Positions 1-40,001 are shown, counted from the first letter of the stretch. The stretch is 40,001 bases of DNA from a virus (IMGVR_UViG_3300035003_000006:1-40001), one strand, 5' to 3'. Notes: generated by a model from the sequence alone, not told the origin. Translations and numbers: made by a program.

Positions 1-426
1 TTAGGCGGCAACGTCTAACCCCTTTTGCTTCTGGTTTGCACCACAAGCGCGGCCGATGCACTGGCGGGTGCAAAATGTCTGGCGGTATCCCTTCCGCACT
101 AGGTGGGTCTTTCGCCGCTCACGGGTGAAAGACTGGCCACAACCGGGACAGTCGAGCGTCACCATCGTGCGCGACTTCCCCTCGCCGTGGATGCGAGCGT
201 GCTCGGCCCTTGTCACGAGCTGGAGGTTCTCCAGGCGGTTGTCGTGCTTGTCGTCGTTGATGTGGTGAACAATCTCGTCTGGTGTGAGTAATCGGCCTAG
301 ATGCTGCTCCATAACTACGCGATGCACAAACACGTAGCGATCAGTGAAGCGGTGCGGGTGATCGGGGCAGTGGACGGCTAGGTAGCCTCGGGATTTGACG
401 ATTGTTCCCCAGTTGATTTGATACAT
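1..426 (-). CDS. HNH endonuclease with C-terminal zinc ribbon
   Basis: [13 protein letters not shown]...[16 protein letters not shown]...H motif, then CPGC and FCTRQC; GGGAGG SD upstream. Confidence 0.85.
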
Positions 427-507
427 ACCTCCCTGTTGTTATTAGTAACCACCTCCCTATGAAACGCCTCACAGCGGGGGCAGCAGAAGGGGCGGGGCGA
501 GGCATGG

Positions 508-726
508 CTAGGTGGTGGGCTTTTTATCTACCAACAGCGCCAGTAGGTACGCAATACCGACCAACAAGGACGCTTCAATGCGGCCTTGTTTGGCAAAAGC
601 GTATGCTAAATAGCACATGGTTAAAAACAAACCTGCTCTGAATGCAAACTTTATAAACACGATAAGGTATATGGTGGCTATGCCTCCCGGTGTGTATTCC
701 TCCTTTAATTCATTGTAGGGCTTCAT
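508..726 (-). CDS. Small membrane protein
   Basis: 72 aa ORF with hydrophobic segments, in line with neighbouring phage ORFs. Confidence 0.6.
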   Translation of the reverse strand: MKPYNELKEEYTPGGIATIYLIVFIKFAFRAGLFLTMCYLAYAFAKQGRIEASLLVGIAYLLALLVDKKPTT

Positions 727-782
727 ATTTTACTCTGGGTTAAGGGTAATGGCGTGCTCCGGTGTGTGCTCTTGTGGTGTGG

Positions 783-1037
783 TCATAAAACTTCCACCTT
801 AAACTCATTACCGCCATCTATCTCGTTCGTTCTGTCACAAACTTCCTGGGCACGCTTCATGCTTCTGTAGGTCAATAGGCGAAGACCTGGTGCTGGATTT
901 GCTAGATAGTTTCGATAAAGGCGGCGGCGACCAATTTTAGTTGCGTAAAACACCGCTCGCTTTTCACCCACCCCTAAACTCTTACCGTTAACATCGAACT
1001 CCTCTTTACCCTCGGCGGTTATGATGTAAGTTGCCAT
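783..1037 (-). CDS. Hypothetical phage protein
   Basis: 84 aa ORF in the tightly packed minus-strand run. Confidence 0.65.
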   Translation of the reverse strand: MATYIITAEGKEEFDVNGKSLGVGEKRAVFYATKIGRRRLYRNYLANPAPGLRLLTYRSMKRAQEVCDRTNEIDGGNEFKVEVL

Positions 1038-1038
1038 A

Positions 1039-1197
1039 CTAGTTATCTGGTTGCTTGTAATTTTCTCCTTCGATTTCCCTGTCGAAGTTGTTTAATTCTG
1101 TATCCCGCGCCTCCTGGCTTAATGCTGTTTGTTTTTCGTATCTGCGTGGCTTAGGTGGTGTCCAAAGCGGTGGTACATCGTCGTCTAGTAGTCCCAT
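1039..1197 (-). CDS. Small hypothetical protein, 52 aa (MGLLDDDVPPLW...), not in ORF track
   Basis: Manual translation; fills the gap between neighbours with 1-3 nt spacing. Confidence 0.55.
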   Translation of the reverse strand: MGLLDDDVPPLWTPPKPRRYEKQTALSQEARDTELNNFDREIEGENYKQPDN

Positions 1198-1200
1198 ACA

Positions 1201-1314
1201 CTATGCGGGGCTGTTCCTTTTCTGGTTAATTGCTGGAGCGAAGGTTATGCAGGTGTGTGGCACGCTAACATCCACTAGATTACAGGTGGGGCAGAGTTTC
1301 CTTTTTGAAGTCAT
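1201..1314 (-). CDS. Small Cys/His protein, 37 aa (MTSKRKLCPTC...HTC), not in ORF track
   Basis: Manual translation; CxxC...HxC; abuts neighbours. Confidence 0.45.
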   Translation of the reverse strand: MTSKRKLCPTCNLVDVSVPHTCITFAPAINQKRNSPA

Positions 1315-1319
1315 AGTTG

Positions 1320-1550
1320 TTATTGCTTATCATCGCTGGGGGTGGGGGAGTGATAATTCACGTTTACCTCGGTTTTAATGCCGCGTACGAAAGAATTAGC
1401 AAGGCCGTAGACCATAAGAATAGTGCCGAGTGCATCAGTAAACTTCTTTCCTACGTCTGTCGCGGTTTTGTTCCAGCCATAGTAGGCACTTCCACCAAGC
1501 CATATTGCTAGGCCGCTAAAGAACACAATGTCGTACAAATATTTTTTCAT
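1320..1550 (-). CDS. Small membrane protein (2 TM)
   Basis: Two hydrophobic segments; operon packing. Confidence 0.65.
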   Translation of the reverse strand: MKKYLYDIVFFSGLAIWLGGSAYYGWNKTATDVGKKFTDALGTILMVYGLANSFVRGIKTEVNVNYHSPTPSDDKQ

Positions 1551-1555
1551 AATTG

Positions 1556-1903
1556 TTATTTCTTATCCCCCTCACTTACTTGGGCGCGGAGGGTGGTGAT
1601 AATGTTGTCGAGGACGGCTTTATGAACAATTTCCATATGTGCCTCTACTTCGTGGTTCCTGCCAGCATAAACTAGATTGGTGACTGAATATTTTTTCTCT
1701 TTCATCCCCTCACACATCCCCACCACCGCATCCACTACCTGTGTGGCGGTTTGGGCTGTGTTGGCTTTACTTTTTTGCTCCAAAAGGACGCGGAACTTCT
1801 CGGGTATCTCGTAGCCCGCGTCGCGTAGTGCGTACACAATGTCGCGGCACATCTCCATATCTGCTGTTTGCTGCTGCTTTATGAGGTCTGTGATGAGGGT
1901 CAT
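1556..1903 (-). CDS. Hypothetical phage protein
   Basis: 115 aa; ATGA overlap with the upstream ORF. Confidence 0.65.
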   Translation of the reverse strand: MTLITDLIKQQQTADMEMCRDIVYALRDAGYEIPEKFRVLLEQKSKANTAQTATQVVDAVVGMCEGMKEKKYSVTNLVYAGRNHEVEAHMEIVHKAVLDNIITTLRAQVSEGDKK

Positions 1904-2130
1904 GGTGTTTTATTAACTAACTTATAAGACTCGAACACTCCGCGACGTACTTGCTTGAATATCCCTCTCTTTACCATACGCTTACAACAACGTCTGATGA
2001 GGTCATCACGATAGCGTGGTGATACACCGAACACTCCGTCTTGCGATTTTGCAATTTCGATAATGCGAAACTCCATCGCATCAGCGTACTTGTGCATTTT
2101 TTGAAGTGGGATGTCTCGGTGCAAATCCAT
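1900..2130 (-). CDS. Hypothetical basic protein
   Basis: 76 aa; coupled to both neighbours. Confidence 0.6.
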   Translation of the reverse strand: MDLHRDIPLQKMHKYADAMEFRIIEIAKSQDGVFGVSPRYRDDLIRRCCKRMVKRGIFKQVRRGVFESYKLVNKTP

Positions 2131-2131
2131 G

Positions 2132-2413
2132 TTACTTTTTCTTAGCTGCTAGGGTGTCCCTCATCGTGTTGCGAAAGGCTTTGAACGCCATCCATTGCTT
2201 TGTGCCTCCATCTGGTTCTCTGTGTTCAATCTCGTCTGACAGTTTGATGCAATCCTCCACCGCCTTCTGGTAGCCAGCGGTGTACGCTTCTTCCTGTAGT
2301 GTGGTGACATAGCCAAGCCTTACCACAGTGAGTTCTCCCGCCTCTTTAGCGCACTCGGAGCGCTGTAATCCTTTCATGTGGAAGTCTGGCTTCTCGTCAT
2401 CGTGTGTGTGCAT
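2132..2413 (-). CDS. Hypothetical phage protein
   Basis: 93 aa; operon packing. Confidence 0.65.
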   Translation of the reverse strand: MHTHDDEKPDFHMKGLQRSECAKEAGELTVVRLGYVTTLQEEAYTAGYQKAVEDCIKLSDEIEHREPDGGTKQWMAFKAFRNTMRDTLAAKKK

Positions 2414-2424
2414 GTGTGGGGTAA

Positions 2425-2685
2425 TTAGTCATTAGTAACCTCTTTCTTTCTTGCTGCCCACCACTTCACGTTTGGCGGTGGCGTCGAGTTCATGCCGAAC
2501 CACATCACTTCGTTGTAGCGTCCCTTGACCTTCTGTGTCGGCCAGGTGGCTACCAGCTTCCTGGTGGCCTCTAGGTCCCGGCTGATGAGGCTGGCGGTGA
2601 GCTTGGTGTAGTACTCCCGCTCCTCATCGCTATTGCGGCGTGGGGGGGGTAAGCGCTTGGTCGTGCGATTGCTATTGGTAGTCAT
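2425..2685 (-). CDS. Hypothetical phage protein
   Basis: 86 aa; operon packing. Confidence 0.65.
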   Translation of the reverse strand: MTTNSNRTTKRLPPPRRNSDEEREYYTKLTASLISRDLEATRKLVATWPTQKVKGRYNEVMWFGMNSTPPPNVKWWAARKKEVTND

Positions 2686-2697
2686 AATTGTTCAGCG

Positions 2698-2937
2698 TCA
2701 CCGACCTGCTGCGTCGGCTAATTCTTTGTGCATCTCGGCGCGGGTCTGCTTCATGATGTCTTCAAGGTTTGCGATACCTTCCTGGTAGCCGCGCTCCTGG
2801 GCAGCCTCGTCTACCTCAATGAGTATCTTTCTGATAACAGCCTCTAGGGTGCCGAGCTGGCCTTCTCCTCGGGAAAGCTTCTCTACCCGGTGCATGATGA
2901 TGTTGGTCTTTTTGTCGATGGTGGTTCGGTCAATCAT
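2698..2937 (-). CDS. Hypothetical helical protein
   Basis: 79 aa; starts 1 nt after the upstream stop. Confidence 0.65.
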   Translation of the reverse strand: MIDRTTIDKKTNIIMHRVEKLSRGEGQLGTLEAVIRKILIEVDEAAQERGYQEGIANLEDIMKQTRAEMHKELADAAGR

Positions 2938-2938
2938 G

Positions 2939-3277
2939 CTACCGGCTGTTAGCGCTAATAAATTTATCTACCCCCATTTCCTTGATCTCCTTCCGGAAGC
3001 GGTTGAACATCCACTTCCCCCTGTGCAGTTGTTCCCCCTTATTCTTTAGGAGCCATGCCTCCCGTTCGGACATGATGCGGGTGAGTTGCTTGGCCTGGTG
3101 GATGGTGACGCTGTTGGCCTTGATATGCCGCAGCCAGGCGGGGTATCCCCACGGGCCGGTCTCAGGGATATCGAAGAAGGCTTTGAAGTGATCTACTACC
3201 TCGACGCCTGACCAGGTTTGCTTTGTTTTTGGAGGAGCGGCGAGGGCGGCTTTGATGTGGTCAAACTTGAGGGGCAT
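2939..3277 (-). CDS. Hypothetical protein
   Basis: 112 aa; operon packing. Confidence 0.7.
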   Translation of the reverse strand: MPLKFDHIKAALAAPPKTKQTWSGVEVVDHFKAFFDIPETGPWGYPAWLRHIKANSVTIHQAKQLTRIMSEREAWLLKNKGEQLHRGKWMFNRFRKEIKEMGVDKFISANSR

Positions 3278-3289
3278 ACAACTTTGGGG

Positions 3290-3568
3290 CTATTCGTTTA
3301 ACGCTACGCTGACGTAAGGTATCGGAATCTCTAAGGAAGTCTGGCTGTATACCTTCACCAACTTGAATGTATGTACCTCATTCTCACTATACTTCTTCAA
3401 TTCGTGCACCAGCTCAAAGCCAGCTTTCTTAAGCTGCTCTCGCACCGGCTCCACATCCCAGGGAGTGGTTTGAATACCTTGCTCTGTAAGGAAGCGAGCG
3501 AGGTGAGCATCTATCATTGATGCCTTTCTGTGTGCTGCCTTAGTGGCTATGTCATGTATGAAGTTCAT
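3290..3568 (-). CDS. Hypothetical protein
   Basis: 92 aa; operon packing. Confidence 0.65.
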   Translation of the reverse strand: MNFIHDIATKAAHRKASMIDAHLARFLTEQGIQTTPWDVEPVREQLKKAGFELVHELKKYSENEVHTFKLVKVYSQTSLEIPIPYVSVALNE

Positions 3569-3701
3569 TGCTGTTTTTATACTGATTGATAATTTTATCT
3601 AGGAACCCTGCTACTGTCTTCGTGTCCTTATGCTCCTCCAGCCAATCCTTCTGCCGTGGGTCAATGCGTACGTGGGTCGAGAACCTACTGTTTTGGCTCA
3701 T
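3552..3701 (-). CDS. Putative ribbon-helix-helix DNA-binding protein, 49 aa, not in ORF track
   Basis: MSQNSRFSTHVRIDPRQKDWLEEHKDTKTVAGFLDKIINQYKNSNELHT: beta strand followed by two helices, typical RHH pattern. Confidence 0.55.
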   Translation of the reverse strand: MSQNSRFSTHVRIDPRQKDWLEEHKDTKTVAGFLDKIINQYKNSNELHT

Positions 3702-4080
3702 ACAGCCCGTTCTCGATTAGGTAGATGAGCATCTTGGCGCGGGCGTCGGCTTCGATAGTGGCCCATATGCCACTGAAAGGAATCACTGGCGCATCGTATG
3801 ATTGCTCAAGTGCATAGCGAACCTCCCAACCATGAAATGTCCTGTGCACCTCTAAAAAATACCATTCGCGTCCTACCTTGATGATATATGGCAACATCTC
3901 ACCCAGCTCGGCGACGGTGAAGGCGCAAGCGCGCTCATCACCTACCCAATTCTCTACGGCGCCCGATGCTGTAATGCGGGCGTGTTCAAGATTCCATCCG
4001 AAGAAGCTCTCTTGCTTCACTCCTAGTTCCTTGAGGCGCTTTGCCAATTCAAGGGAACAAACTTGGTCTTCTACTTTCAT
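3685..4080 (-). CDS. Conserved phage hypothetical protein (likely start MKVEDQVCSLELAK at 4080)
   Basis: QVCSLELAKRLKELGVKQES...AFTVAELGEMLP...EADARAKMLIYL pattern; the longer track start runs through a low-complexity tract. Confidence 0.8.
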   Translation of the reverse strand: MKVEDQVCSLELAKRLKELGVKQESFFGWNLEHARITASGAVENWVGDERACAFTVAELGEMLPYIIKVGREWYFLEVHRTFHGWEVRYALEQSYDAPVIPFSGIWATIEADARAKMLIYLIENGLYEPKQ

Positions 4081-4499
4081 AGGCTCATAAGTTAACGTAA
4101 GGCCCTGCGGGCCTGGTAATCTTCCTTCTCTCCCTCCCTCTCCCCCCGGAATGCCCCTTGTCCTTGCCATGTTCGACGAGTGTCGAGCCTTGCTGGATAG
4201 TAGTAGCATTAGAAGAAAAAAGACGCGCGGCCCTTTTTCTCATTCCGTGTGGGTGTCGGTCGGTCGATTGCTCACATCCGTAGCTGCTATAAGCCTGCTA
4301 CCACTGTGAGGGTGTCTCTCGGCTTTGATGATTGGTTCGCGGGGAACTCCCCGAAAGTCAGATTTACTTTACATACGGGTATATTTTGCTTGTGCCCAGG
4401 TCGTGGCCTTCCTCTCCTAAACGAGCCGTGGTAGCGCTACCTGCCATTGTCTCACCGCACAAACTGACTTTATTTTTCCCCCGTGAACCAACCATCAAA

Positions 4500-4620
4500 A
4501 ACGCAAAAAGCCCAAGGCTTACGCCGTGAGCTTGCTGCGGTTAGGTGCTATCCAGAACATTGAAAGTATAACACAGCCGAAGCCGTTTACGCACTCAGTG
4601 CTTTGTACTCTGGATAGCAT
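4500..4620 (-). ncRNA. Candidate ~120 nt structured small RNA or leader
   Basis: Extended -10 TGaTAGTAT at 4628-4636; hairpin 4546-4619 with 11 bp perfect outer stem and cUUCGg loop; GUAA-loop terminator with U tract at 4505-4533. Confidence 0.5.
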
Positions 4621-4675
4621 GTCTGTAATACTATCAGACTTCCGGCGGCGGGGTAGTGCGAAGTCCATTCTACCC

Positions 4676-4684
4676 TGTGGATAA
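4676..4684 (-). promoter_or_regulatory. DnaA-box consensus TTATCCACA
   Basis: Exact match, intergenic, about 40 bp upstream of a -10 element. Confidence 0.5.
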
Positions 4685-4747
4685 TGAACCCGAATCACTT
4701 GACGGCCGTTCGCCACAAGGCGAATCTGTCACACTAAGACAAGAATT

Positions 4748-5629
4748 ATGCTAGGAAAATCAATGTCTCAGAGCGCCGTGCGGCAGCTCCAGGTGGACCG
4801 TTCGGTGCACATGGGTTGCCAGGACAACTTAGCCTTCATGCGCCCTCTCCCCAAGGAGAGCATGAAGCTCATTGTTACCTCACCGCCGTACAACATCGGA
4901 AAGTCGTACGAGGCACGTTCGCCTCTCGCTGAGTATGTGAAAGCGCAAGCTCAGGTAATCTCTGAGTGTGTGCGGCTACTCTCTCCTACAGGGTCGCTGT
5001 GCTGGCAGGTTGGCAATCACGTTCAGAAGGGTGAGATTTTCCCCTTGGACATGATCCTCTACCCAGTTTTCCAAGAGCACGGGCTTAAGCTGCGGAACCG
5101 GATCGTCTGGCATTTTGAGCATGGTCTGCACTGCTCAAAGCGCCTCTCTGGCCGCTATGAGACGATCCTGTGGTTCACTAAAGGTGACGACTACACCTTC
5201 AACCTAGACCCTATCCGTGTTCCCTCTAAGTACCCTACCAAGAAGTATTTTAAGGGACCAAAGGCGGGTCAACTTTCCTGCAACCCTCTCGGCAAGAACC
5301 CCGGCGACGTTTGGATATTCCCCAACGTGAAGTCGAACCACGTAGAGAAGACCATCCACCCCTGCCAGTTCCCCGTCGAGCTGGTGGAGCGCTTGGTGGT
5401 GTCACTCACTGAGCCAGGTGATGCCGTGTTCGATCCGTACATGGGCGTCGGCAGCAGCGTCATCGCCGCCATCAAGCATGATCGCGTTGGCTACGGCTGC
5501 GACGTAATGCAGCAATACGTTGATGTAGCTTGGCGTCGGGTCCACCAGTTCCGCGCTGGGACCCTTGAAACACGGCCGATGGATAAGCCCGTGTATGATC
5601 CCTTACTGCCGTACGGTGGCCATAAGTGA
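4748..5629 (+). CDS. Beta-class DNA methyltransferase, probably N4-cytosine (M.BstYI/M.BglII-like)
   Basis: TSPPYN motif IV, HPCQFP, and DPYMGVGSS motif I in beta order; overlaps the endonuclease start. Confidence 0.93.
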   Translation: MLGKSMSQSAVRQLQVDRSVHMGCQDNLAFMRPLPKESMKLIVTSPPYNIGKSYEARSPLAEYVKAQAQVISECVRLLSPTGSLCWQVGNHVQKGEIFPLDMILYPVFQEHGLKLRNRIVWHFEHGLHCSKRLSGRYETILWFTKGDDYTFNLDPIRVPSKYPTKKYFKGPKAGQLSCNPLGKNPGDVWIFPNVKSNHVEKTIHPCQFPVELVERLVVSLTEPGDAVFDPYMGVGSSVIAAIKHDRVGYGCDVMQQYVDVAWRRVHQFRAGTLETRPMDKPVYDPLLPYGGHK

Positions 5630-6237
5630 GGATTGTAGAGACTTATTCCCATTTAAACGGGCTTGAGTACCTCATAGTGCATAAGCCCCAACTCTGGCAG
5701 GAGATTCAAGATGTGATTGCCGGGGTGAATGCCCTCGCTTTCAAGACTAAGGTATCGCAGGAAAAGACGATGATGGGGAAGATGTTGTATTCCCCTAAAG
5801 AGATGAATGCAGCAATCAACCAAGAGTTTAAGCTGCGTGGATGGAATGAGAGCCGGACATCATACTGGGTAACTAAAGACGCTAAGATGATCCGACGCAC
5901 GATGAGCTTAACGGCGGTCGAACAAAAAGTTGAGATTGAAGCGTCTGGTGAAGTGCCAATCTTTTCGTATAACCAGACAGACTTTGTGAAAGATCGAGTG
6001 GCTGTTGAGGTCCAGTTTGGGAAATACTCGTTTGTAGCCTACGACCTATTCGTGAAGCATATGGCTTTTTATGTTGGTGACGTGATTGATATCGGCGTCG
6101 AGATTTTACCGATGAAAGAGCTGCAAAAAGATATGTCTTCTGGTCCCGGCTATTATGAGGGTGAGCTGTACAATTTGATTAGGCAAGGGCGGGGGATACC
6201 AGCGGTGCCACTGGTGGTCGTAGGGGTCGCCGCTTAA
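5626..6237 (+). CDS. Type II restriction endonuclease, BstYI/BglII family (predicted RGATCY)
   Basis: 203 aa; YSHLNGLEY, YNQTDFVKDRVAVEVQFGKYSFVAYDLFVKH and RQGRGIPAVPL closely match recalled BstYI. Confidence 0.92.
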   Translation: MRIVETYSHLNGLEYLIVHKPQLWQEIQDVIAGVNALAFKTKVSQEKTMMGKMLYSPKEMNAAINQEFKLRGWNESRTSYWVTKDAKMIRRTMSLTAVEQKVEIEASGEVPIFSYNQTDFVKDRVAVEVQFGKYSFVAYDLFVKHMAFYVGDVIDIGVEILPMKELQKDMSSGPGYYEGELYNLIRQGRGIPAVPLVVVGVAA

Positions 6238-6596
6238 TGCGTCAGCGGGGTCAAACTAACCTCCACCTCATCGGTCCCGCCCTTCCTCACCTTCTCAGCC
6301 GTGATGGTGATGGCACCAATGTACTCCTGCTCGTCACCGGGGATGATCCCCGCGACCACTAGCGAATCAGCCACCATCTTGGCCATGTAGACGTGATTAT
6401 CGATGTCTAGGGGCGTTCCGTGCAGCTTGAAGTGATAATGAACGTGTATGGGGTACGGACCCTCGTAGCGGTCAATTTTGGCCTCTAGGACAGCACACCA
6501 GTACGCCTCCTTGTGCTCCATCCGCTTCCGAAAATGTACCCCGGCGTATATTGCGTTCAAAGATACCTTTTGCGGAATGGCGATAGTAAATTTCAT
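6234..6596 (-). CDS. RusA-like Holliday junction resolvase (likely start 6596)
   Basis: SLN..Y, DIDN...K...D.L...GII.GD motifs; TGcTACAAT 6 nt before ATG. Confidence 0.8.
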   Translation of the reverse strand: MKFTIAIPQKVSLNAIYAGVHFRKRMEHKEAYWCAVLEAKIDRYEGPYPIHVHYHFKLHGTPLDIDNHVYMAKMVADSLVVAGIIPGDEQEYIGAITITAEKVRKGGTDEVEVSLTPLTH

Positions 6597-6616
6597 CCGC
6601 TTATTGTAGCAATAAG

Positions 6617-6642
6617 AAACCCACCTCATTGAGAGGTGGGGT
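6617..6642 (-). terminator. Intrinsic terminator
   Basis: CCCACCTC-5nt-GAGGTGGG stem followed by TTTCTTATT on the minus strand. Confidence 0.6.
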
Positions 6643-6837
6643 AGCGTTAGCGCTGCTCGATGATGGTCATGAGCACGAGACGCGCCTGTGCGGGTGTCAT
6701 GAAGTCCCGCAAGGATCGGTAGAGACGCATCTGCGCTCGATAGCGGTGACGTGGGCGGTACCACATCTATCTCGCGTCAGCATGTGCGAACATGACTGCC
6801 TCCTTTGATGAACGGACCTACCGCAATGATACCACCT

Positions 6838-7038
6838 TCAATTTATCTCTTTCTGAGTTGGATTAGGGAGATGAAGCGTTTGCGGAAACGGCGTAAGCGA
6901 GACGCATTCTGCGTGAAATTCCAAACCGGCCCCTCGACTAGTGTAGTATTGCTGCCCCAGCTCTATTACGTCCTTACAAGCAGCGCACTTTAGTGGGGCG
7001 AATAAGTGCTTACGGCGGCGGAGTAGCTTACAGATCAT
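6838..7038 (-). CDS. Small LIM-like zinc finger protein
   Basis: CAAC...I..G..Y...FHAEC pattern. Confidence 0.6.
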   Translation of the reverse strand: MICKLLRRRKHLFAPLKCAACKDVIELGQQYYTSRGAGLEFHAECVSLTPFPQTLHLPNPTQKEIN

Positions 7039-7216
7039 GAAGGGTGGAGGCGGCTGGGGTGGCCGCGAACCTGAGAAATGCCTGGAAGTGTTCTGGCGAT
7101 AACCAGCCACACTCCATTGCCTCGTACACATCCCAGCCAGGGGTCAGCTCATTTAGCTCTACCCACGCTTGCCACTGTGGGGAATCTACGACTGTTCGGT
7201 AAAAGGACGGGTTCAT
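7028..7216 (-). CDS. Hypothetical protein
   Basis: 62 aa; operon packing. Confidence 0.6.
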   Translation of the reverse strand: MNPSFYRTVVDSPQWQAWVELNELTPGWDVYEAMECGWLSPEHFQAFLRFAATPAASTLHDL

Positions 7217-7291
7217 ACTACGGCAAGCCTATGATCAGCTTACGCAGCCGGGCGTGCTCGCGGATGAGGATGGCTTCGTGTTCGGGATTTG

Positions 7292-7501
7292 TCATAGGTT
7301 TACGATAGTACGGGTAGGCTTCTTGAAGTGCGCCAAAACTAGTACTTTACCGATCACCCACTTATAAAGCACTTCCGGCAGCCACCACGGTTTCGTCTTT
7401 ATGTAGAGTTTGCAGTAGCTGTTTATGGTCTGCGCTTGTTTGTCGGCGATCAGGTAGGCGTGTTTGGCAATAATCTCATCTTGCTCTAGGTTCACTTTCA
7501 T
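7292..7501 (-). CDS. Hypothetical protein
   Basis: 69 aa with KPWWLP..LYKW segment. Confidence 0.65.
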   Translation of the reverse strand: MKVNLEQDEIIAKHAYLIADKQAQTINSYCKLYIKTKPWWLPEVLYKWVIGKVLVLAHFKKPTRTIVNL

Positions 7502-7503
7502 AT

Positions 7504-7686
7504 CTATTTCTTACCGCTCCCAAACGCGAGCATAAAGCGCTCAAGCAGCGTAGGTGGTGGAGTGAGATACCCTCGCTTAAACGCCAAGCGGGCGGTATCG
7601 CTGATAATGTGATTTATTCTATCGTCAAAATTAAGCGGCATGGTAAACCACTGCTCAAACTTGTGGTCAAGGTACTCATTTTCCAT
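7504..7686 (-). CDS. Hypothetical protein
   Basis: 60 aa; operon packing. Confidence 0.6.
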   Translation of the reverse strand: MENEYLDHKFEQWFTMPLNFDDRINHIISDTARLAFKRGYLTPPPTLLERFMLAFGSGKK

Positions 7687-7689
7687 AGG

Positions 7690-8055
7690 CTATTTCTTAC
7701 CACTCCAGAACAGGTACACCGTCACGTCACACGCGGTACCTATTCCGACGCTATTAAACTTCTGGTCTACGATGTTGGCCTTGTGGGTAGGCGAGGCCAT
7801 GAGGGCCGTCTGAATAGCCGTTGCCCGCTGTAGGTCGGTCTGTTTCTTTACGACGGGGAACTTGGCGAGGTTCTCCGCTACATAGCCGCTGTAGCCTTCA
7901 AAGGCCGCCTTCCAGCCGTCGTGGGACCACTGCCTGTCGGTGCATAGCTGTTCGGCACGGGTCTGGGCGCGGGCGGATAGGTCGGTGTCGTAGGTGAGCG
8001 GGGTAGTGCGGGCCTGGTTGGTGAGGAGTAGGAGGGCGATGATGAGGGGTGTCAT
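7690..8055 (-). CDS. CAP (SCP) domain protein with signal-like N-terminus
   Basis: L...AQ.RA, WSH, AENLA, LMASPTHKANI, SVGIG motifs. Confidence 0.85.
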   Translation of the reverse strand: MTPLIIALLLLTNQARTTPLTYDTDLSARAQTRAEQLCTDRQWSHDGWKAAFEGYSGYVAENLAKFPVVKKQTDLQRATAIQTALMASPTHKANIVDQKFNSVGIGTACDVTVYLFWSGKK

Positions 8056-8059
8056 AATC

Positions 8060-8479: not shown

Positions 8480-8501
8480 AAGATTTTTAGTATGTTTTTA
8501 G

Positions 8502-8708
8502 CTACTGAGGCTTACTAATAAGGGTGTACCGATAATCTACGCCATTCTTCTTTGGCAAGCGCTCCCCAGCGATCTGCCAGCCTTCGGCGCGTAGATCTGC
8601 GATACGGGCGGCGAGGCGGCTAATAAAGCGGGATAGGCACTGGTTGCGCGTGATGGTGCCCCTGGTTTCGAGCTGCTTAGCTATCCAGGCAACTTGCGAG
8701 GTTTTCAT
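8502..8708 (-). CDS. Winged helix-turn-helix protein
   Basis: G.IT......I.RLAARIADLR..GW.I...Y.L pattern of phage HTH proteins. Confidence 0.8.
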   Translation of the reverse strand: MKTSQVAWIAKQLETRGTITRNQCLSRFISRLAARIADLRAEGWQIAGERLPKKNGVDYRYTLISKPQ

Positions 8709-9402: not shown

Positions 9403-9405
9403 AGA

Positions 9406-32578: not shown

Positions 32579-33112
32579 TCAGAACTTCCACGACGATGGG
32601 AGCTGCACGTCAGTGACGCCCAGATACCCAATGAGGGTTCCGTCAGGCAGCCGCACTGGCCACGCGACTTTCCCCTTCATAATGCCTCGTGGTGCGAAGC
32701 CACACCCGATGCGCTTGGCGTCCTCCGGCTCGATGCCAAGGGCCACCACCGCCTCGTGGTCAGTTTCAAGGTAGTCGAGAGGCTTGAAGCCCTCACTGGG
32801 CTTGTCTCCCCTCGTGCTCTTTTCCGGCGATGTGGCCTGGTTGCCGACGATGTAGGCCGCTGCCTCCTTGGGAGAACAGCCGCGCACGAACGACACCAGG
32901 CTCAGAACGTCCCCGCCTTTTTGGGCCGGGAAGCTGTACCAAGCGTTCTTTGCGGGGGTAATCGCCATGCCTCGCTCATCCCCCTCGCCGCTAGGGCATT
33001 GACACCGGAAGGCGGCACCATGCGGTTTGAGCTTGAGGCCCAGCCGCGCAGCAACACTTTCGATGCTATGCTCCGCTTTTATCTTGGCAAAGTCGTACTG
33101 GTAACTGGACAT
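32579..33112 (-). CDS. DnaG N-terminal (CHC2-like) protein lacking TOPRIM
   Basis: I..V...LG, CP, WYSF....GGDVL.LV and GKVAWPVR..DG..IGY.G; GGAGG SD. Confidence 0.85.
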   Translation of the reverse strand: MSSYQYDFAKIKAEHSIESVAARLGLKLKPHGAAFRCQCPSGEGDERGMAITPAKNAWYSFPAQKGGDVLSLVSFVRGCSPKEAAAYIVGNQATSPEKSTRGDKPSEGFKPLDYLETDHEAVVALGIEPEDAKRIGCGFAPRGIMKGKVAWPVRLPDGTLIGYLGVTDVQLPSSWKF

Positions 33113-33143: not shown

Positions 33144-34052
33144 TTATAGTAACACCTCCTCGCCTGTATCTAGTCGTATAGCAGGGAGGCCAGCTCGCAA
33201 CCAAGGGACACTAAATAGGTCAATGGTAGTATCGAGCTGAAACAGGAAGATATTAGACTTCCCCGCCACCTCCTCTACCACTGCAATCTTCCCCCGTAGC
33301 TGCTCCATGGTGGCAGCAGTCACCAGTACCCGAAGGTTCTCAATACCTAGCTGCTTTTGGTACACCTTGCTCTCTACGATGATGTTCTGGTAGGCGAGCA
33401 CCTTGCGTAGAAAGGAAGAGGCGCGGAAGTGCGACCTTCGAGGGCGGCTTTCGTTCTCCGCTTCCAGTACGTAGTAGCGTCGCTTGTCTGTATCGAGGGC
33501 AAAGAAGCCGTCAGCTCGTACCCCTTTGCTATACGTCTCCACCCGGCCGCTTGGGAAAGTGTAGGTGAAGGTGCAGGGGAGTTTCAGCGGGTCAGGGAGC
33601 TCGTTGTGTTCCAGCAGCTCCTCTTGGGTGATGAACGCCTTGCCCGCACCCGCTTCGATGGAAGCCAGCACGTCGCAGATTTTCAATTGATGGGTGTGGT
33701 AGCGGCGGGCTTCACCGGGAGGCTGGGTGAAGTGAGCAACCACCTGGTGCGGCTCGATGCCATGGCCTTTGAGAAGGGCACGGCCCTCCGGGGTGATGAA
33801 GTGCTGCACCTCAGCAAAGGGGTTGGCCCGCTGCTCGGTGCGACGGCCCATATACCCGCTGCGGTAGAGGAGCTTGAGCTGGATGCGGATACGCTTAGGG
33901 CTACGGGCGGGCAGCAGCTTATAAAAGCGCGAAGTCTGCACCGTGTCGTACCGGGCGGCGATGGCGAGTATGTCAAGGACGTTCTGCGTGAGGTCGTAGT
34001 TGGGTGGCTTCGGCCCACGGGCAAACCGTCCGATACGCTTCTTTGGCTCCAT
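33144..34052 (-). CDS. Replication-relaxation (Replic_Relax, MOBC-like) relaxase
   Basis: N-terminal winged helix (LT...IL, L..LY..GY, ITPEG), H.L.I.D, DGFF, LEAE, K..AY and RVL motifs. Confidence 0.85.
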   Translation of the reverse strand: MEPKKRIGRFARGPKPPNYDLTQNVLDILAIAARYDTVQTSRFYKLLPARSPKRIRIQLKLLYRSGYMGRRTEQRANPFAEVQHFITPEGRALLKGHGIEPHQVVAHFTQPPGEARRYHTHQLKICDVLASIEAGAGKAFITQEELLEHNELPDPLKLPCTFTYTFPSGRVETYSKGVRADGFFALDTDKRRYYVLEAENESRPRRSHFRASSFLRKVLAYQNIIVESKVYQKQLGIENLRVLVTAATMEQLRGKIAVVEEVAGKSNIFLFQLDTTIDLFSVPWLRAGLPAIRLDTGEEVLL

Positions 34053-34272: not shown

Positions 34273-35835
34273 CTAATCTTCAACCATGAAGGTTTTTCCA
34301 TCAGTTGTAGGTTTTGGTGTTTTGAGAGGGGTCTGTTTCACTTCGGGGGGTGTCTCGGGTTGCCGAGATTTCGGGCCGTAGAGCTCCCGCATCTCAGCCT
34401 GTATCTGTTTGAGGTTTTGGAGTGGTGGTACCTTCTCCAGCCGCCCAAACTCTACCGGGTATTCACGAAAACCAATGTCACGGAAGTGCGCTGCGAACGT
34501 GCCGCGCTTCACTCTGTCTAGGTAACTGGTATCAACGCGCATCTGCTTAGCGAATACCGCAGCGTCACTAGCCGACACTCCCCCGCACATCTTTATCGCC
34601 GTGGTACCCATCATCACGTCGCGGAGCTTTGCCGGTAGGTCTGACAGGGTTTGGTGCGCTACGATCATGCCCAGCTCAAACTTCCTAGTCTGTCGGAAGA
34701 GGTCAAGCAGGATAGCGTCCTCACTGGCGTAATCGGCGTACTCGTCAATGTACATATACGTCCGCCGCCTGGTGCCTTCCCTTTGCATCATCGCATTGAG
34801 TATCTGCGCTATCCAGAGGCGACCAAAGAGCATGGCCTGTCTCTGGCCCATGTACGCCTTAGCGGTGTTGATGAGTATGACCTTCCCGCTGTCTAACGCC
34901 TTGTTGATATCAATACTCATCTCATCGGCCATGAGCATGGTTTGCAGGGTCTTGTCAGCCAGAAGTGCCTGGAGGCGGCGTGCGACTTCCCCACGGCTGT
35001 CACGGTATTCCCCTTTAGGGTTCGCGTACTCCATATAGAAGCCTCTCTCCACTGGCCCCATGTCGGCAAGCCGAACGATGGAGGCAGGGTTCTGGAGGGC
35101 CTCTAGGAAGTCACCCATCGTGCTCGGGGTGCTCAGCATGTAGCGGCAAAGGTAGTCGAACATCCCTTGCTGCTTTGAGGTCATCTCAGCGCCGATAGCC
35201 GATAGGGCGTAGGTAAGGAGGGCTACGCGGCTCGTGAGGTTCGCTGTGGTGCCTGCAAACACGTTGAAAGCCGGGGGACAGGTAGCCGGGTCAATCAGGA
35301 TAAGGCGGTCGTACGGTATGCGCCTCGCTAGGTTGTTGATGAGGTCGTTTTGGCTGTCTATCACCACGATGGCGGCATTAGTCTCCAAATCGTCCAAAAC
35401 CATATTTTGAAAAAGCTGTGACTTCCCCCAACCAGGTGGCCCTACTACCCAGTGGTGTTGGGTACGTAGGTTTTCGGGAATGATGGGTTTAGTTGGTTCT
35501 ACAGGCTCAGGTGGTGCAGGGACCGCCTCGGGTTGTGAGAGATGTAGAAAGCGCTGGAAGCGGACCGCATCTACAAACATAAAAATAACCGTCACCGCCA
35601 TGATAAATGGTAATAGGTAACCGATGAAGCCAATCAACATTGATGGATGTGTGAATATAAGGATTCCAATAGTGGACATAACCGCAGCAAATATGAACAT
35701 TGCAATATGGGACGGGAGTATGGGCTCAAAAGGGCTTTTGTAGGGAGGTCGTATATACCACTCAATGCCAATCCAAAATGTGCCAATCGCTACTAGTATT
35801 GCTACAATCCCAACCACATATTCCATGACAGGCAA
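34273..35835 (-). CDS. VirD4/TraG-like coupling ATPase with three N-terminal TM helices
   Basis: H.WVVGPPGWGKS Walker A, VIDSQ, YMYIDE Walker B and RKF.LG..VAHQ. Confidence 0.9.
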   Translation of the reverse strand: MPVMEYVVGIVAILVAIGTFWIGIEWYIRPPYKSPFEPILPSHIAMFIFAAVMSTIGILIFTHPSMLIGFIGYLLPFIMAVTVIFMFVDAVRFQRFLHLSQPEAVPAPPEPVEPTKPIIPENLRTQHHWVVGPPGWGKSQLFQNMVLDDLETNAAIVVIDSQNDLINNLARRIPYDRLILIDPATCPPAFNVFAGTTANLTSRVALLTYALSAIGAEMTSKQQGMFDYLCRYMLSTPSTMGDFLEALQNPASIVRLADMGPVERGFYMEYANPKGEYRDSRGEVARRLQALLADKTLQTMLMADEMSIDINKALDSGKVILINTAKAYMGQRQAMLFGRLWIAQILNAMMQREGTRRRTYMYIDEYADYASEDAILLDLFRQTRKFELGMIVAHQTLSDLPAKLRDVMMGTTAIKMCGGVSASDAAVFAKQMRVDTSYLDRVKRGTFAAHFRDIGFREYPVEFGRLEKVPPLQNLKQIQAEMRELYGPKSRQPETPPEVKQTPLKTPKPTTDGKTFMVED

Positions 35836-35837: not shown

Positions 35838-36173
35838 CTACTTCAAGCGACGCTGAGAATTATCAGTACCGCGTAGCGGTGAGGGTGTTGATTTAGGTAG
35901 AAAACAGACAATAACGGTAATGCACCACCAAACCACCACGGGGAAGAGACCGCCCTCCTTTATCCAGTCTAGGCCAAAAACAGGCTGGAAGTTACGCGCC
36001 CACACGACGAGCACGAAACCAAAAACCGATATACCTAAGAGAATTGTAAACCAGTCGCCATCTAGCTTGTGCCAGGGGACCAGTTGGCGACGGCTTTTCA
36101 GGTACCAAGCCACAGCACACATCGTCCATACGGTAGGACTATACAGAAACGCCTTTGCTGCTACCTCGTACAT
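35838..36173 (-). CDS. Three-TM membrane protein (likely start 36173)
   Basis: 111 aa hydrophobic ORF between the two ATPase genes. Confidence 0.7.
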   Translation of the reverse strand: MYEVAAKAFLYSPTVWTMCAVAWYLKSRRQLVPWHKLDGDWFTILLGISVFGFVLVVWARNFQPVFGLDWIKEGGLFPVVVWWCITVIVCFLPKSTPSPLRGTDNSQRRLK

Positions 36174-36181: not shown

Positions 36182-37291
36182 CTACATGAAATTGCGGCGC
36201 ATTGTCTCTTCGATGTACGGGCGGCTCTCTGGGAATCGCTCCGGGTCGAAAGACACAACCGTAACGTCTCTGTCCCCCTTGCGCCATGGGAATTTTCGGT
36301 AGGTGAAGTCAGGCAAGTCTTCGAGATTTACCGACAGTGCGTTTTCAGGGAACCACTTTTGATAGCGCCGAGCGTCATCGTCAGATACCCGGAAGACGTG
36401 GCTCTCAGCGTTCCCTTTGAGCGCGTCAAACAGCTCGTTGTCTAGCTGACTGGCAAACTGGTTGATGCACACCAGGTTGACGTGGAACTTACGGATGCCG
36501 GTGAGCATCTCTTGGAGGATGTCCGGTGCCCACGTATGGCACTCATCGGCCACGATGTAGAACGGGGTGGTGGTGGTGCGGGACAGTGCCGCGACCTGGG
36601 TGAGTGCGAGTAGCATGTTCCCTACCAGCCGCACATTCTCGTCTCCCAGCGCTCCCGTAGGTAGCCGGGCGATCAGGATTTTGTTGTTTAGGACAACATC
36701 AAACAGGTCGAGTTTTGTCTTTTGGCTATCAAAGACACGAGAAAGGTCATCGTCGGCACGGAGTTGGTAGAACTTATTGTAGGTTGATTTTATTAGCTCC
36801 CATTGATCTCTGGCTTTGAGTGTGCTCATAAAGTCCCAATGTTCTTTTCCGGCACGGTTAAGCATCGTACTAGTGAATGTGTCTCTTACCGCTTGGTCGG
36901 TAAGGAATGGCGGGATGTCCAAGACGGTGCCCTGTCCGATAAGAGCGAGGACGGAAGCGTGTACGGTCATGTCCATGTTGGCGGTAGCAGCGTCAGGCAT
37001 TTTGGCGAGTGAGCGGACCATCGCCACGAACGCTTTAGCGGTGAGGGAATTGTATTGTGGCTGTACGTCAAAGGGGTTCCACTTAAGCGGAAACTCGTAC
37101 GGGTCGAATAGTAGTGTTTCCTTGCGCCGTGATTTCGGAATAGTGTCGAGTAGGTCAGTGGCGTCCTCGCCATGCTTGTCGAGGAATAGTAAGCCGCATC
37201 CCGCGCGTATCGCGGAATTGATAAGGTGTTTGGCGTGTGTGCTCTTGCCCGTCCCTGTGCTGCCTAGAATGTGGGTGTGCGCCATAACCAC
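36182..37291 (-). CDS. Soluble VirD4/TraG/HerA-like ATPase
   Basis: HTHILGSTGTGKST Walker A, LDKHG, YIVADE Walker B, RKF...NQ..SQL and FRVS.DDA. Confidence 0.9.
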   Translation of the reverse strand: MVMAHTHILGSTGTGKSTHAKHLINSAIRAGCGLLFLDKHGEDATDLLDTIPKSRRKETLLFDPYEFPLKWNPFDVQPQYNSLTAKAFVAMVRSLAKMPDAATANMDMTVHASVLALIGQGTVLDIPPFLTDQAVRDTFTSTMLNRAGKEHWDFMSTLKARDQWELIKSTYNKFYQLRADDDLSRVFDSQKTKLDLFDVVLNNKILIARLPTGALGDENVRLVGNMLLALTQVAALSRTTTTPFYIVADECHTWAPDILQEMLTGIRKFHVNLVCINQFASQLDNELFDALKGNAESHVFRVSDDDARRYQKWFPENALSVNLEDLPDFTYRKFPWRKGDRDVTVVSFDPERFPESRPYIEETMRRNFM

Positions 37292-37917: not shown

Positions 37918-38043
37918 ATGTTTAAATTTAGAGATTTTTTAGCTGCGCCGTTTTATCTACTAGGGATAATGTTTTTGTACCTGGCTGTGTCTGTAGGTGG
38001 TAGGTGGACGGCAGAAAGGGTGCGTGAGTTCTTGAATAGGTAA
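37918..38043 (+). CDS. 41 aa single-TM peptide, not in ORF track
   Basis: MFKFRDFLAAPFYLLGIMFLYLAVSVGGRWTAERVREFLNR; ends at a hairpin. Confidence 0.55.
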   Translation: MFKFRDFLAAPFYLLGIMFLYLAVSVGGRWTAERVREFLNR

Positions 38044-38073
38044 AGGGCGGCTCCAGTTAGGATGCCGCCCCTT
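38043..38073. terminator. Hairpin between convergent genes
   Basis: GGGCGGC...GCCGCCC stem with inner TCC/GGA pairing. Confidence 0.6.
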
Positions 38074-38078
38074 GTCGT

Positions 38079-38516
38079 CTATGCAGCCATGTAGTGACCC
38101 TTGCTAGGAGTGGTGATCTTCCCCTCCTTGGTCAAAGCCGCCACGGCATTGCTGATGCTCTGCTCAGCCGCCTTGTCGGTAGCACCCATCGCAGTGAGCA
38201 AGTCCTTCCGGCTGATGCCGTCCTTGTTCTCCGCGATCTTGGCGAGCACCGCTTCACGTACGCCTGCTTTGCGAGGCTTCCGGGTACCAGTGGAAACACG
38301 GGGCTTCTTCGCCTTCGGTTCCACCGTTGCCGGGTGCGGGTTGAAGTAGCTCTCGATGCGGTCGAGCTTGCCGTCAATGACAGCGAGCTCTTCATCGATG
38401 GCGGCGCGACGTGCTTCCACTTCCTCGCGTTGCTTGGTGAGCTGTTCTTTAGCCCTTTGCATGAAGGCGTCGGGGTCTTCTTCCTTGCGGGCCTTGGCGG
38501 TTGCTACTTCGGACAT
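38079..38516 (-). CDS. Coiled-coil plus C-terminal winged-helix DNA-binding protein
   Basis: Heptad N-terminus, K/R/P-rich linker, then REAVL..I....GISRKDLL...SISNAVAAL.KEGKI....GHY; AGGAGG SD. Confidence 0.8.
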   Translation of the reverse strand: MSEVATAKARKEEDPDAFMQRAKEQLTKQREEVEARRAAIDEELAVIDGKLDRIESYFNPHPATVEPKAKKPRVSTGTRKPRKAGVREAVLAKIAENKDGISRKDLLTAMGATDKAAEQSISNAVAALTKEGKITTPSKGHYMAA

Positions 38517-38580
38517 GGTGCCTCCTGTGTGTGCTAGTCCAGTGGGTATGGTACTACACCAAGGAGATGGTATGATGGAA

Positions 38581-38650
38581 GGGCGATGTACCTAGGTGGG
38601 CATCGTTCTCTCTGAAAACGCTGAAAGCCTCGTGTCGCGCGAGGCTTTTT
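38581..38650 (+). ncRNA. Candidate ~70 nt small RNA
   Basis: TGgTATGAT at 38568-38576; hairpin 38581-38608; terminator AAAGCCTCG/CGAGGCTTT followed by a T run. Confidence 0.45.
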
Positions 38651-38658
38651 GCGTGCAT

Positions 38659-38694
38659 GAAAAAGGGGAGCCGGAACGATGCCCGGCTCCCCTT
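38659..38694 (-). terminator. Terminator after int-alpA
   Basis: 12 bp stem AAGGGGAGCCGG/CCGGCTCCCCTT ending in a T run. Confidence 0.85.
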
Positions 38695-38705
38695 GCCCCT
38701 AAAAC

Positions 38706-38897
38706 TTAGGAGCTTTCGCGTGCGCTGATGCGTAGCTGCAACCAGGTAACCACTTCATCCTTCACCCACCCAACCCTCGCTTGCCCCAGGCGCACCCGTT
38801 TAGGAAACTCTCCTTTGGCTTCGAGGCGGTCGATGTGAGCTGGGGAATAGAGCACCAGGTCACGCACTTCACGCTTTGTGAGTAGTATTTTCATCAC
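38706..38897 (-). CDS. alpA: AlpA-family excisionase/regulator
   Basis: LL.KREV...V.YS..HI.RLE..G.FPKRVRLG..RVGW...EV..W. Confidence 0.92.
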   Translation of the reverse strand: MMKILLTKREVRDLVLYSPAHIDRLEAKGEFPKRVRLGQARVGWVKDEVVTWLQLRISARESS

Positions 38898-38927
38898 GGA
38901 AACTCCCGCAGTGGGAGCTAGCCGCGA

Positions 38928-40001
38928 CTAGCCCGGTTGGTGCCCAGGCGAGGGGACTGTAGCCGAAATGACTGGGGTTATCCAGTTCTCAAATGCAGTG
39001 ACCGCGCGGCGCATCTCATCGATGTATTGATACCTGTTATAAGTGCGAGCTACCCCGGATATCTGCCCGGTAGCGTGGTTGAGAAGGGCCTCAATGATGT
39101 GAGGCGGGGTGCCAAGCTGGGCGTGTACTGTAGCGTAGGTACGCCGAAGGTCGTGTAGCGTCCATTTTGCCACTTTAGAGGCGGTATCAAGCCTCGCCTT
39201 AGACTTTCCCCATCCTACCCATTTAAGAGGCGTATCGAGTAGATTTACTGCTAATCCAGGGACAGGAAAGGTGTGGGTGCGTTTGTTTTTCGTATGCTCG
39301 GCGGCAATGGTCACTAGATCATCGGCTAGTACCATGTGCTCCACTTCCCCGCGCCGTTGTCCTGTGAGCATGAGCACCTTCACTATCCTGCCGAAGTCAT
39401 CGTCTGGACAGGCGTGCCAGATAGCTTTGAGCTCGTCGGGGGTGAGTACACGCTCCCGGCTGTCGTTCTTCGCTGGGGTGGTGAGCTTCTCAGTCGGGGC
39501 GTCATCAATGAGATGCTGCTCGACGCACCAGTTGAAGAACCGTCGCAGGGTGACGAAGGCGTAGCGCTGCTCCATCGGCCCCTCAAAGCGCTTGAGCTGC
39601 TTGAGCACGTCCCTGGGGGTGATGTCAGCGAGGTTGCTGCGTCCCCAGTCCATGCGGTTGAGGCGGGAGCGGTAGCCTGCCAGCGTTGACGGTCTCACCG
39701 TCGCTTCACTGAGGAACCGCGTGCGGGCGTCCTCGTAGGCGAGGAAGCGGGGCTTGGTCTTCCCTAGCGTCTTCTCAGCGAGGAGCCTCTTCGCCTCGGT
39801 GCGGGCTTCTGCGAGGCTGATGATAGGGTAGCGGCCGATGGTGTGCCGTCTCCCTTTGCCGATAAGGACCAGGAACGTCTTGCTCTGCTTCCCTACCCGG
39901 ACACCGAACCCGCGCGGCGCAGTGTCCCAGATCATCGTGTGCCCGGCAGGTGGGTTGGGGGCGGAACGAATGGCGATGTCGGTGATGGCCTTTTGCACCA
40001 T
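38928..40001 (-). CDS. int: Tyrosine integrase, P4-like with arm-binding domain
   Basis: WD...GFGVRV...SKTF arm domain; TGQRRGE, KN, HDLRRT, LNH and YNRY catalytic motifs. Confidence 0.97.
   Translation of the reverse strand: MVQKAITDIAIRSAPNPPAGHTMIWDTAPRGFGVRVGKQSKTFLVLIGKGRRHTIGRYPIISLAEARTEAKRLLAEKTLGKTKPRFLAYEDARTRFLSEATVRPSTLAGYRSRLNRMDWGRSNLADITPRDVLKQLKRFEGPMEQRYAFVTLRRFFNWCVEQHLIDDAPTEKLTTPAKNDSRERVLTPDELKAIWHACPDDDFGRIVKVLMLTGQRRGEVEHMVLADDLVTIAAEHTKNKRTHTFPVPGLAVNLLDTPLKWVGWGKSKARLDTASKVAKWTLHDLRRTYATVHAQLGTPPHIIEALLNHATGQISGVARTYNRYQYIDEMRRAVTAFENWITPVISATVPSPGHQPG

Follow-up and report, generated by a model that had tools for sequence, protein, structure and literature searches.

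Gene content of the window

The viral stretch IMGVR_UViG_3300035003_000006:1-40001 (hereafter "the window," meaning the whole 40,001 nucleotides analyzed) carries the genes of a temperate, siphovirus-type member of the Caudoviricetes, joined at its right end to a cassette of a different character. Pfam and PHROG scans of its 62 proteins recovered a complete siphovirus gene set (the terminase subunits TerS and TerL, portal, HK97 capsid, tail tube, tape measure, lysin and integrase) together with ERF, SSB and RusA proteins and an amidase-type lysin. The right-end cassette comprises the integrase, AlpA, a winged helix-turn-helix (wHTH) protein, two ATPases, a 302-aa protein, CHC2 and DUF932 (Table 1; SD, Shine–Dalgarno motif; T4CP, type IV coupling protein). 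The window contains no tRNA gene, and none of its 62 proteins matched an XRE/CI-type repressor; the wHTH protein is the sole conserved candidate for that role. A preliminary description had read the stretch as a possible phage shared between an epibiont of the Candidate Phyla Radiation (CPR) and the host of that epibiont, and we follow up this proposal here.

The window runs from the stop codon of an HNH gene at base 1 to the integrase ATG at base 40,001. A 59,390-nt contig of a public run contains it without differences and at even depth—possibly it is the window's source—and extends 19,241 bases beyond window base 1 and 148 bases past the integrase. The window is therefore a provirus trimmed out of a longer sequence. 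A 117-kb contig is also on record for its TerL cluster.

Table 1. Features of the window, ordered by position.
Feature	Position	Strand	Basis
Small SD-less early/accessory genes (rusA, CAP, SPFH-like, HTH_39, HNH, unknowns)	1..8956	-	Pfam/PHROG, signal scan
BglII-like restriction-modification cargo	4748..6237	+ (opposite strand)	PF01555, PF09195
ERF annealing protein and SSB (Paceibacteria-type)	8998..10011	-	SSB identity and tree
Lysis genes: membrane/coiled-coil protein, Amidase_2 endolysin, holin-like protein	10765..11784	-	Pfam/PHROG
Siphovirus neck and tail: adaptor, gp10, terminator, tube, chaperone, tape measure, hub, tip, fiber	11813..20767	-	Pfam/PHROG
Secreted ATSSLG-repeat (ATSS) protein, akin to Paceibacteria surface proteins	20867..22966	-	Genome searches
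Portal-MuF fusion, HNH, prohead protease, HK97-type capsid	24243..28874	-	Pfam/PHROG
TerS and TerL; terS with TG-extended -10 hexamer 8 nt before ATG	28891..30550	-	Pfam/PHROG, signal scan, TerL tree
DUF932 protein, SD-led	30614..31327	-	PF06067
CHC2 zinc-finger (primase-type) protein, SD-led	32579..33112	-	PF01807
Replic_Relax/MOBC-like relaxase (family level), TG-extended -10 hexamer 9 nt before ATG	33144..34052	-	Family matches
Membrane-anchored coupling-type ATPase (T4CP1)	34273..35835	-	TrwB_AAD_bind at cut-off
Small membrane protein encoded between the ATPase genes; uncertain start	35838..36173	-	Sequence
Soluble coupling-protein/HerA-type ATPase (T4CP2)	36182..37285	-	DUF87, weak TrwB_AAD
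Coiled-coil and winged-helix DNA-binding protein, SD-led	38079..38516	-	Model: H15-58 and wHTH
AlpA-type excisionase, SD-led	38706..38894	-	PF05930
Hairpin burying the alpA SD and start codon	38889..38927	-	z -4.2 in the window
Tyrosine integrase, Arm-DNA-bind_3 domain, window cut at its ATG	38928..40001	-	Pfam/PHROG

Affinity of the virion and SSB genes to Paceibacteria

The host-derived genes, those for the SSB and the ATSS protein, group with Paceibacteria. Specifically, the SSB aligns over its full length, at 63% identity, with the single chromosomal SSB of a Kaiserbacteria metagenome-assembled genome and reaches at least 100 bits in 85 of 101 genomes of the class Paceibacteria; the copy in a related Sphingopyxis prophage excepted, it scores at most 98 bits in 200 alphaproteobacterial genomes (an unpublished control genome, G055, is counted in the alphaproteobacterial tallies only). 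In a 36-row FastTree the window SSB pairs with that of the Sphingopyxis prophage and with the Kaiserbacteria SSB (support 0.925), the latter lying in an rpsF-ssb-rpsR-type locus. The ATSS protein had been described as a signal-peptide protein with ATSSLGI repeats, and it does have a hydrophobic, signal-like N-terminal stretch and five ATSSLG-like repeats, degenerate copies included. Its N-terminal 389 aa find matches in 11 of 101 genomes of Paceibacteria and in none of 101 from Alphaproteobacteria; similarity of a Dongia gene to the ATSS gene is confined to the N-terminus (E 3e-4).

The virion module is likewise related to prophages in Paceibacteria chromosomes. Portal matches occur in 4 of 401 Paceibacteria genomes, three of which were fetched (G476, G546, G588), and reach 175 and 156 bits in Paceibacteria versus at most 123 in Alphaproteobacteria other than the Sphingopyxis prophage. 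Each of the three prophages keeps portal-MuF, protease, tube and tape measure in the window order, with four to five genes shared, and two of them also encode homologues of the tail hub (31–40% identity) and of gene 12840 (31–39%). They carry a Xer-like integrase and neither the ATPase nor the relaxase; the genes that flank them, named from their sequence, are CPR chromosomal genes. The best TerL match among 50,697 cultured-phage records was 42% identical; the best cultured-phage matches of the capsid reach about 28–30%. The TerL proteins of the window (28891-30039) and of the Sphingopyxis element (L008) are not sisters, though their head-tail genes are close, which suggests terminase exchange. 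As to lysis, no open reading frame (ORF) with a lipobox lies near the lysis genes, in keeping with the earlier remark that no o-spanin is visible, a remark tempered by a weak Rz-like match of gene 11491 (see below).

Two styles of start signal

An SD motif, scored as GGAG or GAGG 4–11 nt upstream of the curated minus-strand start, precedes four of ten cassette genes (alpA, wHTH, CHC2, DUF932), whereas none of the 50 genes for virion, lysis and early functions has one (Fisher p=4e-4, p-values of this kind overstating certainty), which bears out the preliminary description. For the integrase, the window holds no DNA upstream of the start. The HNH gene at 1-426 (minus strand), unlike its SD-less neighbors, has a GGAGG abutting its ATG, a motif too near the start to be scored as an SD site.

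The other style had been described as a -10 hexamer just before the ATG of most remaining genes. A TAyAAT-type hexamer 5–10 nt upstream of the ATG indeed marks nine of the 50 virion, lysis and early genes (terS, portal, protease, the ATSS gene, tail terminator, 18870, 12840, 11491 and rusA) and the relaxase gene, with a background of 4 in 552 other ATGs; seven of these ten hexamers carry a TG extension. "Mostly" was an overstatement because most other genes are stop-coupled: 27 of the 41 remaining non-cassette genes begin no more than 20 nt from the upstream stop. The intergenic DnaA boxes of the same account did not stand out from chance (5 matches against 2.07 expected, with 5 of 100 shuffles reaching 5), and three of the five lie within coding sequence.

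Both signal classes persist across orthologues 25–70% identical. With up to three candidate starts allowed per gene, an SD motif precedes CHC2 in 19/21, wHTH in 9/9, AlpA in 10/11 and DUF932 in 18/20 orthologues, and the -10 motif precedes protease in 6/6, portal in 6/8, TerS in 4/5 and relaxase in 6/17; none of the relaxase orthologues checked has a strong SD. Relaxase genes that lack TAyAAT (L137, L305, L306, L307, L315) show, without an SD, a CTATC/ATATC-like word about 9–10 nt before the ATG, possibly a host-type leaderless promoter.

A mechanical test of the -10-ATG style, run on length-called ORFs with ten Paceibacteria and ten alphaproteobacterial stretches as controls, found it in 6 of 26 virion and early ORFs of the window, 27 of 164 ORFs of Paceibacteria chromosomes and 1 of 126 in Alphaproteobacteria, control sets that differ in GC content (0.42 versus 0.62); the three alphaproteobacterial stretches lowest in GC (0.49–0.57) gave 0 of 43. 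The flanks of the relatives lack this style: it marks 8 of 35 ORFs of the Sphingopyxis prophage versus 0 of 13 flank genes, and 0 of 41 genes of the Dongia flank.

The integration cassette and its distribution among relatives

Six of the seven organism-named matches of the integrase are alphaproteobacterial, the best being Limobrevibacterium (67%). The alpA hairpin directly follows the integrase stop and was present in 4 of 4 elements tested (z -6.9, -3.8 and -6.1 in the relatives, with differing sequences); it is predicted to act as a translational lock on excision. The modeled wHTH protein combines an N-terminal coiled coil with a C-terminal winged helix, an architecture like that of Rok, and may be regarded as a candidate silencer of CPR-type promoters. 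The fold search was unspecific and did not single out Rok, whose domain came at rank 41 (E 0.11).

In L087, the nearest relative (79%), the phage-end genes are followed by a 3' piece of tRNA-Phe and then by the integrase. At no more than three mismatches, this att-like piece occurs in 19 of 301 alphaproteobacterial versus 0 of 201 Paceibacteria genomes. The relatives integrate site-specifically in non-CPR chromosomes: att repeats of 26–58 bp at tRNA or tmRNA ends delimit six of nine elements tested on non-CPR contigs, and no repeat was found for the Sphingopyxis (contig cut), Kocuria and Paeniglutamicibacter elements. Neither the integrase matches, nor the att piece, nor the CPR-associated elements (cassette in 0/12) indicated an integrase or att site of CPR type or the presence of the element in a CPR genome.

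Scanning species genomes for TerL gave 80 loci, 14 of them labeled Patescibacteria; 20 of the 80 were fetched further. Loci L323–L328 were left unmapped. Other TerL loci lie on long contigs of Sphingopyxis, Dongia, Acidobacteria (Pyrinomonadaceae among them), a member of the Geobacteraceae, Kocuria and an isolate of Paeniglutamicibacter. A profile search placed a coupling-type ATPase in 10 of the 11 TerL-clade elements that lie on non-CPR contigs; the one without a match, from Geobacteraceae, is cut by a contig end and shows a weak CHC2 match. On the CPR side the ATPase was found in none of nine phage contigs or prophages binned as CPR, nor in any of three additional Paceibacteria prophages; the CPR-binned contigs (33–41 kb) are possibly incomplete or mis-binned. 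Within ±10-kb loci, no ATPase was found in Bacteroidota loci, on short contigs, or in L025, L030, L032 and L034. ATPase-bearing elements are scattered among CPR-binned and other sequences in a 59-row TerL tree with a weak backbone.

The Sphingopyxis element has 21 proteins in common with the window (capsid 75% identical) and ends at a tRNA-Thr before high-GC genes, and the Dongia element places the same cassette on a different virion module. Their flanks encode, by Pfam, a reductase and a nitrilase-family protein (Sphingopyxis) and pantoate ligase, Kup and HPPD (Dongia), genes that would fit metabolically complete cells. Among IMG/VR DUF932 loci of at least 50% identity, 9 of 12 carry both ATPase and relaxase, and the other three start at CHC2 near a contig end; a 30-kb contig from a second run has a cassette and ATSS gene about 85–95% identical with 16.9 kb of different sequence between them. 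The Kocuria element has a gene that matches PF13814 (E 8e-21). Its capsid finds matches in 1 of 201 genomes of the class Saccharimonadia and 2 of 151 of the class Actinomycetes; its best cultured matches are Mu-like proteobacterial phages, with no actinophage among the 19 cultured matches. The Kocuria (L264–L267) and Paeniglutamicibacter (L178–L181) prophages are related to each other and have a Mu-like capsid and a coupling ATPase, and the PF13814 relaxase gene of the former has a -10 motif.

Relaxase and coupling ATPases

Although 48 of 69 members of its family match PF13814, the 302-aa window protein itself does not. The family has invariant H121, D181 and E197, and D181 and E197 fit the D-x-ExE motif. 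In its model (pLDDT 95) a fold search recognizes a winged helix at the N-terminus, the remainder giving no more than weak matches to nucleases, with searches for the C-terminal fold being filled up by wHTH-domain matches. T4CP1 matches TraD at E 2e-5, under the curated cut-off. A coupling ATPase stands beside the relaxase, as expected of MOBC/Replic_Relax modules, and this adjacency is conserved. The relaxase and coupling-protein identities put forward in the preliminary description are supported at family level and no finer. No family of a mating pore (VirB4/VirB6 and partners) was found among the 62 proteins, sub-threshold ATPase cross-matches aside, and with no mating pore of its own the element does not look like a self-transmissible integrative and conjugative element.

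Two further loci recall this region. A Paceibacteria chromosome (L344; G294:C1:793866-796997) has two tandem coupling-type ATPase matches, an echo of the window pair. A GenBank record labeled Microcystis phage (L340; PP438423.1) has an ATPase, a weak relaxase match, a weak DUF932 match and ParA, without an annotated virion gene; it looks like a mobilizable element or a plasmid piece.

Accessory genes

A defense hot spot adjoins rusA. The window has a BglII-like restriction-modification pair there (4748-6237), and the Sphingopyxis relative has a weak SMODS match and a patatin (L168:12562-14375), a nucleotidyltransferase-patatin pair resembling a cyclic-oligonucleotide-based antiphage signaling system (CBASS-like). 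Early genes at 7690-8479 (minus strand) encode a secreted CAP-domain protein and an SPFH/flotillin-like membrane protein.

A proposed two-cell cycle

The two-lineage anatomy is well supported. SSB, ATSS protein, head-tail synteny and promoter style point one way; integrase, att-like piece and integration of relatives outside the CPR point the other, and the modules do not group with one lineage. Virion, lysis and SSB genes of the type of Paceibacteria, which belong to the ultra-small, parasitic Patescibacteria (CPR), an alphaproteobacterial-type cassette and relatives in ordinary chromosomes together suggest that the element likely multiplies in the parasite and is likely stored in the parasite's host. 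We therefore propose a two-cell phage, one that would replicate in a Parcubacteria epibiont and be transferred into, and stored in, the host of that epibiont; we give this a probability of about 0.6.

In the proposed cycle, virions and relaxase would be made in the Parcubacteria cell; the relaxase shares the promoter style of the virion genes and would be made there and start transfer. The coupling ATPases would then pass the nicked DNA into the epibiont's host through a borrowed channel, proposed because the element encodes no mating pore. Patescibacteria widely encode type IV secretion systems, mostly without a relaxase (PMC12102498). It is from the co-occurrence of relaxase and coupling proteins that we infer this crossing of the cell contact. 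In the host cell, CHC2 and DUF932 may help the DNA to establish itself and its second strand to be synthesized, the integrase would insert the element at a tRNA end of the chromosome, and the hairpin would keep AlpA down and thereby control excision, with the wHTH protein as a putative silencer of the strong promoters. The return is the least supported step; it might begin with excision, the DNA then entering an attached epibiont by transfer or uptake, or it might consist in a low yield of virions from the host.

Several observations weigh against this proposal. A cassette-bearing element was not found in a CPR genome (0/12 CPR-associated elements), and the nominal p of the ATPase split (1e-5) is too small because the elements are related. 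The ATPases are not specific to the CPR: homologues occur in 5 of 5 Paceibacteria (two to three each) and 2 of 5 alphaproteobacterial genomes, also outside prophages. A CPR origin for them was rejected, as the copies from Paceibacteria have as their sisters two non-prophage copies from Alphaproteobacteria and not those of the window. TerL, tried as a CPR marker, proved too mixed, its loci beyond the Patescibacteria-labeled ones including DPANN and Bacteroidota bins, and a Saccharibacteria origin of the actinobacterial elements found no clear link in the Kocuria capsid counts. Virion proteins are just 24–40% identical to those of CPR prophages, and gene 11491 has its weak Rz-like PHROG match (E 4e-4). 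Our relaxase profile found no relaxase in the six acidobacterial elements, the TAyAAT motif marks just the stated minority of relaxase orthologues, and the mechanical test gave no -10-ATG excess for the elements from Acidobacteria and Actinobacteria. Finally, TAyAAT promoters and leaderless mRNAs should function in Alphaproteobacteria too; the two styles therefore show ancestry and likely tuning, not exclusivity.

The strongest competitor, which we nonetheless consider unlikely, is a phage of CPR ancestry that merged with an integrative mobilizable element and today runs through its full cycle in non-CPR hosts alone. The CPR-style signals would then be inherited and still working, and the relaxase and ATPases would serve replication or conjugative hitch-hiking. 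It would explain why every cassette-bearing element with flanks sits on a non-CPR contig, and it is favored by the same ATPase type in alphaproteobacterial loci without a phage gene seen nearby (one beside a relaxase), by this type in a record without annotated virion genes, and by the Rz-like match. Yet it requires that hosts were switched several times independently, each time in company with the cassette, and leaves the virion-gene signals undrifted towards SD despite 30–40% orthologue divergence; the Paceibacteria-type SSB and surface protein have been retained, no o-spanin was found, and the group has no cultured member.

A one-way sink, in which CPR phage DNA enters the epibiont's host, integrates, never returns and is kept for its defense cargo, strikes us as distinctly improbable. 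A return route is not evident, the cargo hot spot holds the restriction-modification pair (window) and the nucleotidyltransferase-patatin pair (Sphingopyxis relative), and one Pyrinomonadaceae element, read from its sequence, is apparently interrupted by genes like those of insertion sequences. However, a dead end would not keep a host-type integrase, SD sites, the alpA hairpin and intact virion genes across diverged members, and L087 joins its phage-end genes to the integrase across the att-like piece, as an excised form would. A chimera that joined a CPR phage to an alphaproteobacterial island during assembly or binning, suggested by the origin of most relatives in metagenome-assembled genomes, is already largely refuted and would be very surprising, given the evenly covered 59,390-nt contig (though this may be the window's source), the same junction repeated in independent records, the precise att repeats and one carrier (L084) that is an isolate assembly.

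More broadly and tentatively, the two-cell phage may stand for a widespread class that would pass between the cells in contact as relaxase-processed DNA, stay silent at host tRNA genes with a host-style gene set of its own, and re-emerge when a new epibiont attaches: a stored anti-epibiont phage. The preliminary description had suggested a possible anti-parasite weapon like integrated mavirus, a role for which we found no support.

To our knowledge, the hosts of most Patescibacteria remain unknown and CPR phages have barely been studied. If the class is real, each such prophage would identify a host of CPR bacteria directly from genome sequence (Sphingopyxis, Dongia, Pyrinomonadaceae, Terracidiphilus, Kocuria, Paeniglutamicibacter), and, if the phages shuttle, a CPR-type prophage in an ordinary genome would flag its species as an epibiont host. 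The isolate lysogen L084 offers a culturable handle. The two-cell cycle, if true, would divide the life of a phage between two phyla, linked by contact-dependent DNA transfer, and would give stored virophages a bacterial counterpart; even a completed host switch would leave an undescribed family of phage/mobilizable-element hybrids with repeated crossings of phylum borders. The literature within our scope, which left out most subscription papers and supplements, contained no account of CPR-type phages in non-CPR chromosomes with a transfer cassette, and the novelty would lie in the proposed cycle.

Comparison with known systems

The closest parallel in behavior may be Xhp1, a prophage of Schaalia odontolytica XH001, which like the relatives of the window resides in the chromosome of an epibiont's host; it is induced by the epibiont Nanosynbacter lyticus TM7x and can bind and infect it (PMC13578794). 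Unlike the proposed phage, Xhp1 forms plaques on and lysogenizes its own host, and its infection of TM7x is weak (PMC13578794). The window has virion and SSB genes of CPR type and a relaxase/ATPase cassette, neither of which is reported for Xhp1 in the text consulted.

Other work touches on both partners. One report assigns separate phages to epibiont and host and, in the text consulted, does not contain the word "relaxase" (PMC13059738). CRISPR spacer links to both groups have been reported (PMC10746230, PMC12960796) and suggest phages that touch both partners, with no two-lineage genome or transfer module described in the portions consulted. Mavirus in Cafeteria burkhardae is alike as a parasite's parasite stored in the genome of the shared host and reactivated on infection (PMC8547959); in contrast, mavirus is eukaryotic and targets a giant virus.

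Two systems are closer in gene content. Paceibacteria prophages of about 44 kb (PMC12455944; G476, G546, G588) are alike in size, head-tail order, portal-MuF and mostly SD-less starts, but lie in CPR chromosomes with a Xer-like integrase and without the ATPase/relaxase cassette. MOBC relaxases are related to restriction enzymes (PMC6499999). MOBC/Replic_Relax integrative mobilizable elements share the integrase, excisionase, relaxase and coupling ATPase, the lack of a mating pore and, with the window's relatives, integration at tRNA ends. Unlike those elements, the window has its cassette as a fixed part of the genome of a complete tailed phage, and the remaining genes of that phage point to another phylum.

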